A program made the position numbers and the translations under genes. The notes under the pieces are model-generated. The model saw only the letters and a list, made by a program, of their open reading frames with translations, ran no database searches and was not told the DNA's origin. From a virus (lineage: Duplodnaviria > Heunggongvirae > Uroviricota > Caudoviricetes), in the IMG/VR virus record IMGVR_UViG_2740892014_000012: DNA of 16,521 nucleotides; one strand, written 5' to 3'. Shown here one piece after another: positions 9,003 through 15,044 of the stretch (its first letter is position 1; the number at the start of each line of letters is the position of its first letter).

Positions 9003-9251
9003 AGCTAAAGTATTAGCTTAAAAATAAAGTATACCTAGCGAATATAATCTAGGACTAGTTGTAACGCCCGAAATGATTGATTGCGTGAGCAACAAAATTT
9101 TTCTTCCATTGTTGTGAAATCATTTAGCCATAAAGTTTATGCAGAGATTTTATTTTATTTTTGAGTTGATTTTTTTGTAACGAGCTGTATATTTCGCGCC
9201 TCTTGTCATACCAGTTATTTTTTTCATTATATTCATAACGTTGATTGAACT

Positions 9252-12200
9252 ATGACCACTGTGAATAAAAAGTTAAAAAAAACTGCATCTGGCGCGATTA
9301 CATGGTCGGTAATTGTTACCCAGATATTATCTCCAGTTTCTCTTTCTTTGATCCCAGCAAACAGTTTTGCATCATCTGGTAATAAAGATGTTACGCAAAT
9401 TTATGCCAGCGATGAGCATGCAAATAAAGTGGCCTCATTTGCAGCAAGTGCAGGTCAGAGCCTGGCGAATAATAATGCAAGTAGTTTTGCTGTAAATACT
9501 TTATCAACTCAGGCGACAAAAGAGGTCGTCGACTGGTTGCAACAATATGGCAATGCGCGCATCAAGCTTAATGTCGATGATTCTTTTTCCTTGAAGGATT
9601 CATCATTCGACTTTTTATATCCATGGCTGGATACTCAGGATTATGTGTTATTCAGTCAGACATCACTACATCGTACTGATGACCGAAATCAGACCAATAT
9701 TGGTTTGGGGATTCGTCATTTCACTCCTGATAACGCAATGTTGGGTGCGAATGTTTTCTATGATTACGATTTAAGTCGTAGTCACTCTCGTGCAGGTTTT
9801 GGGGTTGAGTACTGGAGGGATTATTTCAGGCTTGGTGTAAATACCTATTTTGGTCTATCTGACTGGAAGAACAGTCGTGATATTGATGATTATCTGGAAA
9901 GACCTGCAAATGGCTGGGATTTTTCTGCTGAAGGATGGCTACCTGCTTATCCGCAATTAGGGGCATCTATTCAGTTTGAAAAATATTATGGTAAAAATGT
10001 CGGGTTATTTGGAAGCGATAACCTGCAGGAAAACCCTTACGCAGTTACTGGGGGAATTTCTTATACACCAGTTCCTCTGATTAAGTTTTCTGCACAGCAT
10101 AAGCAAGGACAGAGCAACACTCACGATACAACCTTTGGTGTTGAGTTTAATTATCGCCCGGGCGTTTCCTTGGCTGAACAGCTTAGCAGCGATAATGTTG
10201 CAGTTATGCGAGAAGTCCAGAACCGGCGTTATGATTTTGTTGAACGAAATAACAACATTGTTCTGGAGTACAAGAAGAAGCATGCACTGAAAATCAGTTT
10301 GCCAGAGTCTGTTCAGGGGGAGGGGGAATCAATCATCCCTGTAACACTGACAATCAACAATGCTAGTGGTGGTATCAAGTCTGTACAGTGGAATGATAGT
10401 GCATTCACTGCGGCTGGCGGCAAGATCAGTGGAAATGGCACATCATGGCAGATCACTTTACCGGCTTATAAAAGCGAAGGTGTAAATTCGTGGAATGTTG
10501 GAGCCACAGTACAGGATAACAGAGGCAACGTTTCCAACTATGCCGTGATGAATATTAGCGTTACTGATAGTGGTGTCTCGACGGCTGATTCGTCTTTTAC
10601 ACTGGATGGAGATTCGTCGCCGACAATCTCTGCTGATAGCCAATCCACTTATCCGATAGTATTAAGCCTGAAAGATAGTAACGGTAAGGCATTAACCGGA
10701 CTGGCTGATGACATTGAAATGTCAGTGGAATTTACAGCAGATAGCAATAGTGCTCGACAGCGTGAAACGGTAACTGCTCCGTCATTAGGCGCGGTAGAGG
10801 AAATCTCTGCTGGGGTATATCGCTCTGTTCTGACTGCTGGTTCGCAGGCTGGTACGGTACGTGTAACTGCAAAAGTTCAGGGAAAAACCTTTACTCTGAA
10901 TATTAAGCAGGCAGCCATTACTGATAGTGATGTATCGACAGCTGATTCGTCTTTTACACTGGATGGAGATTCGTCGCCGACGATCTCTGCTGATAGCCAA
11001 TCCACTTATCCGATAGTATTAAGCCTGAAAGATAGTAACGGTAAGGCATTAACCGGACTGGCTGATGACATTGAAATGTCAGTGGAATTTACAGCAGATA
11101 GCAATAGTGCTCGACAGCGTGAAACGGTAACTGCTCCGTCATTAGGCGCGGTAGAGGAAATCTCTGCTGGTGTATATCGCTCTGTTCTGGCTGCTGGTTC
11201 GCAGGCTGGTACGGTACGTGTAACTGCAAAAGTTCAGGGAAAAACCTTTACTCTGAATATTAAGCAGGCAGCCATTACTGATAGTGATGTATCGACAGCT
11301 GATTCGTCTTTTACACTGGATGGAGATTCGTCGCCGACGATCTCTGCTGATAGCCAATCCACTTATCCGATAGTATTAAGCCTGAAAGATAGTAACGGTA
11401 AGGCATTAACCGGACTGGCTGATGACATTGAAATGTCAGTGGAATTTACAGCAGATAGCAATAGTGCTCGACAGCGTGAAACGGTAACTGCTCCGTCATT
11501 AGGCGCGGTAGAGGAAATCTCTGCTGGGGTATATCGCTCTGTTCTGGCTGCTGGTTCGCAGGCTGGTACGGTACGTGTAACTGCAAAAGTTCAGGGAAAA
11601 ACATTTACTCTCAGTATTAAGCAAACAGCAACAACAGAACCTGATTCTGAGGTCAGTGCTGTTTTAACCGCTGCACCAGCAGAACAGGTAGTTGGTTACA
11701 ATATCAATCTACAACTGGCAGTGAAGGATTCACAAGGAAATGCAATCACTGGTGATAACACTCTGAGCTTTTATGCTCTTAACCAGGCAGAAGGAGTCGA
11801 GTTTGGGACTGTAACGGAAAAAGACGGTGTCTATAGCGCGACAGTAACTTCAAAACGAGCTGGTAAGATTACTATCGGTGTTAAATCTGATAGTCATGAT
11901 TTCTCAGGTGTTAAGAAAGAAATCACCTTTATTGAGGACCGGCAGCAGGTTACATTCTCTCAGTTTGAAGCCAGCCAAAATAATGCATTGGCTGATGGAA
12001 AACAGAGAAATATGGTAACTGTAAGCCTTGCGGACCGTTTCGGCAATGTTGTTCCTGGTTATGCTGTCACATTGTCTTTACCAGCAGGGATAACTCAAGT
12101 TGGTGGTGAACATGCTGTTTCAACTGACGAAAATGGTAATGCTATTTTTGCGTTAATAAGCTCCACTCCGGGGTCTTACGTGATTACAGCTCATGCTGGT

Positions 12201-14984: not shown

Positions 14985-15011
14985 GATGCAGAAATGCACC
15001 TGCGTTTTTTT
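14985..15011 (+). terminator. Candidate weak intrinsic terminator upstream of ninB (tR2-like position)
   Basis: Short imperfect stem (UGCAG..CUGCG) followed by a T7 run (15005..15011). The stem is weak, so this is tentative. Confidence 0.3.
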
Positions 15012-15044
15012 GCATCTAGCGTCTGACCTCTGTGGAGGTGAAGC

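Follow-up and report, generated by a model that had tools for sequence, protein, structure and literature searches.

The window analysed here, the whole 16,521-nucleotide stretch of IMG/VR virus record IMGVR_UViG_2740892014_000012, represents the integrase-to-rusA half of a lambdoid prophage, as judged by its open reading frame (ORF) calls and Pfam matches. Between the replication gene P and the gene ybcN it carries a gene for a 1421-residue inverse autotransporter (IAT) adhesin and, convergent to it, a gene for a predicted lipoprotein esterase. An earlier note, made from the sequence alone, had described the two as one cargo of about 6 kb (9003–15044) in the P–ninB interval, where lambda has ren. 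Both genes are present and lie between P and the nin position, where the lambda-like phage 4A7 carries ren, but they form two separable cassettes that end at about 14861 rather than 15044. The gene to their right is of the phage 82 orf151/ybcN type; it occupies the position of ninB and scores only marginally against Pfam NinB (23.7 bits, cutoff 23.8). The features of the interval are as follows.

8301–9002, plus strand: P (Pfam Phage_lambda_P, 3.4e-61), the left anchor of the cargo interval
about 8993–13556: cassette 1, FdeC-like IAT
9003–9251, plus strand: adhesin-cassette leader, 30% GC, also conserved in prophage L003, which has the adhesin alone
9252–13517, plus strand: IAT adhesin, 1421 aa (Pfam IAT_beta, Big_1, Invasin_D3)
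13529–13549, both strands: GC-rich hairpin terminator GGGGAGGGCTTAGCCCTCCCT, with a 9-bp stem and T-runs on both strands, scoring as a terminator both ways
13550–14861: cassette 2, esterase with signal peptide and lipobox
13554–14597, minus strand: predicted lipoprotein esterase, 347 aa (BD-FAE family, FaeD-like)
14598–14861, minus strand: esterase upstream region, which travels with the esterase in isolated phages
14862–15044, plus strand: phage-82-type nin leader, with a promoter-like TTGATT-17-CATAAT at 14863–14891
15045–15500, plus strand: ybcN/phage-82 orf151 (NCBIfam PRK09741, 275 bits; RefSeq annotation ybcN), the right anchor

Comparison with related phages and prophages separates the two genes. 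The adhesin occurs alone at locus L003 and in six IMG/VR contigs, and no fewer than seven isolated lambda-like phages (4A7, Lambda_4C10, D2, 1W, 3W, PhiR47_2, and Perceval) have the esterase without the adhesin. For 4A7 and six other isolated phages, P is shared up to position 8992 and the match resumes at 13550; the DNA in between encodes ren, emrE/qacE, and a recombinase and has no adhesin gene. From there, 4A7 displays 98.8% contiguous homology to 13550–16439, through the esterase into the nin genes. Strain AST217, on the other side, has kept the adhesin, its leader, and the hairpin (homology to 13556) and lacks the esterase: 117 unrelated bases follow position 13556, after which the nin leader is found from 14903. 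This adhesin-only copy lies in a degraded prophage adjoining appY (the DLP12 site). The cassette junction lies exactly at the T-run after the hairpin. These alignments indicate that the cargo is not one 6-kb unit but two independently mobile cassettes stacked by recombination in a hypervariable P-to-nin slot, and they show that the adhesin and esterase genes are not a functional unit. Whether the two genes act together had been left open at the outset; they need not, each cassette being independently mobile.

The borders can be drawn closely. The bidirectional terminator that the two genes had been proposed to share does score on both strands, but it is the adhesin cassette's own, because the esterase-only phage 4A7 has a different hairpin, AGCCCGCATAAGTGCGGGCT, 3′ of the esterase in its stead. 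The window hairpin is also kept in the adhesin-only locus L003, and here it would be read from both sides. On the left, the last 10 nt of P (8993–9002) differ from the ren-carrying phages. P is matched over residues 1–233 in all 15 IAT-bearing contigs and over residues 1–231 in nearly all others; because the last two residues correlate with what follows, we place a mosaic joint inside the final codons of P. On the right, homology to phage 82 starts only at 14862, which makes 14862–15044 (183 bp) conserved backbone and not cargo. The AT-rich flanks described in the earlier note are real in composition (GC 0.30 for the leader at 9003–9251 and 0.37 for 14598–14902), but their right-hand end is the nin leader of the backbone.

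The genes themselves are AT-richer than the phage backbone, as had been supposed. At third codon positions, the GC content (GC3) of the adhesin gene is 0.354 and that of the esterase gene 0.388; P has 0.603, ybcN 0.625, and exo/bet 0.58–0.61. A survey of slot occupancy in related prophages, which had been suggested as a check, covered 80 IMG/VR contigs whose P shares at least 97% identity with that of the window. In these, P and ybcN lie 1.1 to 7.6 kb apart, the gap falls into more than 20 size classes, and the adhesin is found in 15 contigs and the esterase without adhesin in 2. The P-to-ybcN slot is a cargo hotspot. Two properties of phage morons are seen here: presence or absence among otherwise near-identical phage genomes, and a composition (GC3) distinct from that of the flanking phage genes. 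The cargoes of the variable gap in contigs L048–L125 may include other conversion or defence genes.

The adhesin was searched against Pfam, and its passenger was additionally searched segment by segment. Its layout, in residues of the protein and positions of the window, is the following.

aa about 1–40 (9252–9371): signal peptide with KKLKK n-region, hydrophobic core, and ANSFA↓SS, read by eye from the sequence
aa 97–341 (9540–10274): 12-strand-type β-barrel, preceded by a linker
aa 342–441 (10275–10574): D00-like immunoglobulin (Ig) domain, aligning to intimin D00 (6TQD)
10561–11623, plus strand: three 119-aa Invasin_D3-like repeats, a 357-bp tandem array of 3.0 copies at 98% identity (Tandem Repeats Finder)
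after the 119-aa repeats: about five Big_1 domains, from the segment-by-segment family searches
13149–13514: C-terminal 120 aa, without a family match

The match to IAT_beta (PF11924) covers aa 57–334 with E = 5.6e-101 and 338 bits against a cutoff of 22.3, and Pfam finds Big_1 in five stretches and Invasin_D3 in seven stretches of the passenger. With an N-terminal IAT barrel, a Sec signal peptide, and a C-terminal Big_1/Invasin_D3 passenger, the protein has the makeup of a type Ve autotransporter, which bears out the original identification. No LysM, Intimin_C, or lectin domain was detected in it by Pfam or the segment searches. The number of 119-aa repeats varies from 1 to 4 among strains: genes with 1–3 repeats measure 3552, 3909, and 4266 bp, and the proteins include forms of 1302 and 1421 aa as well as one of 1540 aa. 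Stalk length therefore varies by gain or loss of these repeats. It also changes quickly, because 2- and 3-repeat alleles share otherwise identical prophages in the background of sequence type 131 (ST131) with an insertion sequence (IS). Megablast reported four places per record for the gene; these were considered as paralogs and set aside, as they are more likely off-diagonal repeat matches whose count tracks the repeat number.

About 10% of the complete E. coli genomes (561 of 5426) carry the adhesin gene, and 544 of 562 adhesin records retain at least 80% of it (97% near full length). For alleles separated by a dS of 0.20, with 246 substitutions, the ratio of nonsynonymous to synonymous rates (dN/dS) is 0.148 overall, 0.067 in the barrel, and 0.19 in the distal passenger: the adhesin is under purifying selection. 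It always follows P in the 29 E. coli-type IMG/VR contigs that carry it. The backbones around it differ in cI/cro (~80%/48% identity), O (67%), and int (65%), and the cassette occupies two different chromosomal attachment sites; such a distribution requires that phages have exchanged it by horizontal recombination.

In E. albertii, a homolog of 80% identity is chromosomal and lies downstream of ydcSTUV-patD, and a Citrobacter homolog (67%) is likewise chromosomal in two genomes, where it adjoins pgaA, suggesting capture from a chromosome; the simplest history consistent with these sequences would be a chromosomal enterobacterial IAT captured by an E. coli lambdoid phage and then spread by phage–phage recombination. 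A comparison of the adhesin leader with the DNA upstream of the Citrobacter homologs gave no convincing homology. In one further genome a copy of the 67% Citrobacter type directly abuts a P4-like primase gene, which is accompanied by an Ash-family gene (L008, 2994–7375), and in a viral contig another copy abuts a 186-like cII/cI/int end (L043, 3556–7302). The Citrobacter loci share the gene and a few hundred bp on either side only, and L042 and L008 share in addition ~1.7 kb downstream. A general phage association of the adhesin lineage outside E. coli was considered and is unsupported, given the pgaA and patD neighbours in Citrobacter and E. albertii.

The esterase is likewise what had been proposed, a convergently encoded protein of lipoprotein type. 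It matches BD-FAE (PF20434) with 5.7e-45 and 154 bits against a cutoff of 26.8, and Abhydrolase_3 with 81 bits. The oxyanion motif PGGGF, Ser164 in GDSAGG, Asp276, and His308 are invariant across 12 homologs, as befits a BD-FAE or α/β-hydrolase fold-3 esterase. At the pattern level, its signal peptide is followed by a bacterial lipoprotein lipobox, MSVGS↓C25, and acylation is predicted; the two closest homologs retain the lipobox cysteine, which more distant ones lack. The best solved relatives are a rumen-metagenome esterase, Lip_vut4 (1.6e-37), and acetyl-xylan/carbohydrate esterases. Chromosomal homologs with 63–80% identity occur in Pectobacterium, Dickeya, Pantoea, Kosakonia, Klebsiella, and Rhizobium. 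Dickeya possesses the feruloyl esterases FaeD and FaeT (10.1101/568105), and one Dickeya homolog (63%) carries the name ferulate esterase.

The closest non-phage relatives (75–79%, lipobox retained) are encoded 17–34 bp downstream of a phenolic acid decarboxylase gene, a neighbourhood that makes sense if the esterase releases hydroxycinnamic acids; the pair looks like a hydroxycinnamate release-and-decarboxylation unit. Such pairs were seen in Enterobacterales-like contigs (L128, 5478–7047; L129–L131), in L128 with a LysR regulator gene just upstream. No remnant of a phenolic acid decarboxylase gene was found upstream of the phage esterase in the window. On the basis of gene neighbourhood and homolog naming, the most likely substrates of the phage enzyme are carbohydrates of plant origin from which it would cleave hydroxycinnamoyl (feruloyl) or acetyl esters. 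Its cassette is present in 682 of the 5426 complete E. coli genomes. Most of the ST131 genomes listed carry ISEc23 (IS66 family, 2532 bp; L001, 16576–19107) in the gene, with an 8-bp target duplication of 13570–13577. With the insertion in place, the last 5–6 conserved residues, the invariant A345 and L347 among them, are replaced, and the terminator is cut off from the gene. The window is the form without ISEc23.

The surrounding prophage could be followed in closed genomes. In ST131 chromosomes 16.4 kb of the window are 100% identical, apart from ISEc23 in those listed. Strain LS4 has the uninterrupted form inside a prophage of ~47.8 kb bordered by icd and a 3′ icd remnant, with a complete lambda-like set of lysis, head, and tail genes and a side-tail-fibre pseudogene. 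Outside the window, the LS4 prophage carries iss (a bor homolog; L005, 29464–29757) and a TonB-family gene after the lysis genes and, near its right end, sitABCD (L006, 11048–14497), making it a multi-moron element. The icd-integrated prophage is the element named PAI-icd in the literature on extraintestinal pathogenic E. coli (ExPEC), found in ST131 and other strains; the published account lists sitABCD and iss and mentions neither adhesin nor esterase (PMC9686529). Further features of the window are listed below.

1–1143, minus strand: int, followed by xis and exo/bet/gam
5655–6410, minus strand: S24-type repressor gene, then a cro-like gene
6749–7288: YdaT-toxin-domain gene between cro and O
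7285–8304: O (Pfam Phage_rep_O)
14896–14922: 9-bp inverted repeat, a possible regulator-binding site according to the phage 82 annotation
14947–15048: orf33/ylcH-like ORF, 33 aa, overlapping the start of ybcN
14984–15007: hairpin with a T-run, inside the orf33/ylcH-like ORF
after ybcN/orf151: ninE, ybcO, and rusA (Pfam NinE and RusA matches)

The YdaT-toxin-domain gene sits where lambda has cII. Between the kil-like gene and the repressor (5143–5655), the place of N in lambda, we found no N-like ORF, nor any ORF of at least 50 aa. A defective prophage was considered on this ground and dropped: two isolated phages, PhiR34_1 and Turner, share the region at 100% and 99.5% identity, so the N-less architecture is viable. 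Such phages probably antiterminate without an N protein, and by analogy with HK022 and HK639 one might guess at an RNA-based (put-like) mechanism. Rfam at gathering thresholds gave no match anywhere in the window.

Taken together, we hold it probable that the interval contains two independent moron cassettes, an FdeC-like IAT adhesin and a BD-FAE esterase, in the P–nin slot of an icd prophage. From what is known of the family, the Sec signal would deliver the adhesin to the periplasm, where the β-barrel assembly machinery (BAM) would insert the 12-stranded barrel at its N-terminus; the ten or so Ig-like domains towards the C-terminus would be threaded outward by hairpin-type export into a rigid stalk. 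The product may then serve the lysogen as a surface adhesin or biofilm factor, like FdeC, YeeJ, and IatB–D. In the lysogen it could be expressed from a promoter of its own in the 70%-AT leader, where a consensus scan places promoter-like hexamers at 9166–9193 and 9203–9230; by analogy with other E. coli IATs the leader is probably silenced by H-NS and conditionally induced. Because the gene lies on the early-right strand, it may also be co-transcribed from pR in lytic growth. The strong terminator on that strand would have to be read through to reach Q, and the promoter-like site at 14863–14891 could also feed the nin genes. The adhesin may spread between strains by lysogenic conversion.

Several results weigh against parts of this reading. 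With respect to transfer by virions, tblastn against 50,697 deposited phage records found no IAT in any genuine phage, and there is no isolated virion genome with this adhesin; two hits were discounted, one a Salmonella whole-genome shotgun contig filed as a phage and the other a 2.1-kb fragment. As for expression, the promoter-like hexamers upstream of the adhesin are not above those of shuffled sequence. The C-terminal 120 aa, the likely binding tip, matched no family, and an AlphaFold2 model of the C-terminal 227 aa made without an alignment was unusable (predicted local distance difference test, pLDDT, 36.6). Lastly, adhesin and esterase are found together in at least 447 of the 561 adhesin-positive genomes, which is compatible with co-selection.

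The last point speaks for a functional pair kept by co-selection, such as a module for colonising fibre particles in which the adhesin would fasten the cell to plant or mucus material and the surface esterase would strip this material or alter the ligand of the adhesin. If the 561 and 682 carriers were independent, ~70 joint genomes would be expected, in counts uncorrected for clonal over-sampling; the genes are moreover adjacent, have a common terminator, and encode products that are both predicted to be extracytoplasmic. Each gene nevertheless occurs alone in several backbones, including those of viable phages, and the two are convergent and separately transcribed. In the dominant ST131 form, an IS lies between them and clips the esterase C-terminus, with no sign of adhesin loss thereafter. 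Clonal sampling and physical linkage are a simpler explanation of the co-occurrence than co-selection, and we regard such a pair as unlikely. A stronger version, that selection joined and kept the two as a phage-transmissible module for colonising dietary-fibre or mucus particles, is slightly less probable still; here the lysogen would attach through the Ig-stalk adhesin to glycan surfaces of plant or host origin, on which the surface-tethered esterase would act locally.

As unlikely as the functional pair, in our view, is that the adhesin is inert baggage of a domesticated, non-transmissible PAI-icd remnant, silent, drifting, and spread only vertically. The lack of any isolated phage with the adhesin fits this idea, as do copies broken by IS66 or IS3 or truncated (H51, H69, H80, H89, and H90), the side-tail-fibre pseudogene of LS4, the adhesin-only copy in the degraded DLP12-site prophage, and the typically poor expression of E. 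coli IATs in the laboratory (PMC6714894). Drift is, however, at odds with a dN/dS of 0.15 over the 246 substitutions and with the near-full length of 97% of the copies, and purely vertical spread with the occurrence of the same cassette at both attachment sites in backbones of different immunity, O, and int. The prophage also has a size that can be packaged and full sets of head, tail, and lysis genes.

A third possibility is that the adhesin serves the phage, its dense layer of Ig stalks masking outer-membrane receptors (superinfection exclusion) or clumping lysogens. Lambdoid prophages often bear surface-altering exclusion genes, the same prophage has iss, related genomes have an ompC-like porin, and the adhesin gene is on the early-right transcript. 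Against this, the adhesin has no homology to a known exclusion protein, although the PADLOC library was not searched, and its closest relatives are chromosomal IATs of adhesin type; we consider such a role improbable.

Nothing was found in favour of a chimeric assembly, or of a chromosomal locus that happens to lie beside phage genes, and the probability of either is negligible: closed genomes (e.g. LS4 and many of ST131) show the identical arrangement in hundreds of chromosomes, with phage genes on both sides of the interval and within the icd-to-icd′ prophage. The earlier note had named three findings that would count against it; instead, a barrel match to the profile hidden Markov model is present, the composition is distinct, and a chimera is excluded.

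Research on the IATs of E. coli (intimin, FdeC, YeeJ, SinH/IatB, and others) treats them as colonisation factors and vaccine antigens. If the adhesin of the first cassette is expressed and the prophage transmissible, an adhesin of the IAT class can move between strains by lysogeny, and it would be a third fitness determinant of PAI-icd beside sitABCD and iss. The esterase would add a plausible diet-related enzymatic trait, one already carried by viable coliphages. Were the co-selected module real, a temperate phage would be supplying pandemic ExPEC with a type Ve adhesin for niche adaptation, one of the first examples of its kind. Two separate morons are an ordinary kind of phage cargo and leave views of how phages or IATs work unchanged; their relevance is mainly to E. 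coli adhesin and vaccine research and to the cataloguing of phage cargo.

Among known IATs, which were compared as the earlier note had suggested (FdeC, YeeJ, intimin, and invasin), the adhesin is a clear family member without a named ortholog. It most resembles FdeC/EaeH, with near-equal length (1421 aa vs. 1417 aa in FdeC), colinearity throughout, and the same succession of signal, linker, IAT barrel, D00-like domain, and all-Ig passenger, with neither LysM nor a recognisable C-type lectin domain. Identity to FdeC of SMS-3-5 is, however, only 31% overall (barrel 59%, D00 37%, distal passenger 26%), fdeC has a chromosomal site in that strain whereas the adhesin lies in the prophage P–ybcN slot, and the adhesin is set apart by its near-identical 119-aa tandem repeats of variable copy number. 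It thus has neither the high identity nor the conserved chromosomal locus of an FdeC/EaeH ortholog. Nor is it an ortholog of YeeJ (barrel 54%, overall 29% identity; no LysM match). Its barrel can be aligned from end to end with the barrel structures of invasin (Yersinia; 4E1T, 1e-73) and intimin (EPEC/EHEC; 4E1S, 7e-63), but the protein is not an intimin: it reaches 329 bits against the 1400-bit cutoff of NCBIfam intimin_all, no LysM, Intimin_C, or lectin-type tip is detected, and there is no context of the locus of enterocyte effacement (LEE) or Tir. It also misses the NCBIfam equivalog cutoffs for YchO (IatA; 270 of 508 bits), SinH (IatB; 318 of 999), and the IatC N-terminal model (388 of 2400), and its scores are far under what the curated models for IatC, intimin, SinH, Ilp, YrIlm, Cronobacter Inv, and YchO require. 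IatD is set apart by its description, as its LysM and lectin domains (PMC6714894) are absent here.

The N-terminal 445 aa form a 50% cluster of their own among 1.84 billion representatives, the next-nearest being at most 50% identical. A survey of E. coli IATs distinguishes seven groups, places each of the six studied IATs at a conserved chromosomal position, and mentions neither phages nor prophages (PMC6714894); together with the absence of IATs from genuine phage records, this agrees with the original view that phage carriage of an IAT is unusual. Searches of the literature by protein accession and topic found no description of the gene. On these sequence relationships, the adhesin is best regarded as a further, unnamed, FdeC-like IAT lineage.

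As cargo, the adhesin recalls lom and bor of lambda, which we take to be the classical lysogenic-conversion morons encoding outer-membrane proteins, and also iss: each is a self-contained gene with its own terminator, foreign composition, and presence/absence pattern, encoding a surface protein expected to aid the lysogen. Those, however, are small 8-stranded barrels or lipoproteins of the late region, whereas the adhesin is of type Ve, is encoded by 4.3 kb, and occupies the P–nin slot. The cargoes of DLP12 and 4A7 (ren, emrE/qacE, the ybcK recombinase, and ybcLM) use the same slot between P and orf33-ybcN, and 4A7 has the same esterase cassette at 98.8%; they differ in the other upstream cargo and in the lack of an adhesin. 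The esterase resembles the FaeD-type/BD-FAE enzymes in its 63–71% identity to the Dickeya, Pectobacterium, and Pantoea homologs, its triad, its signal peptide, and its Pfam BD-FAE match, and it differs, together with its closest relatives, in having a lipobox cysteine rather than a plain signal-peptidase-I site. NanS-p of Stx prophages is similar in concept, being another secreted esterase encoded by a prophage, through which the lysogen may reach more carbohydrate of host or dietary origin; it is an SGNH-type sialate O-acetylesterase at another prophage position, unlike the α/β-hydrolase of the BD-FAE family found here.

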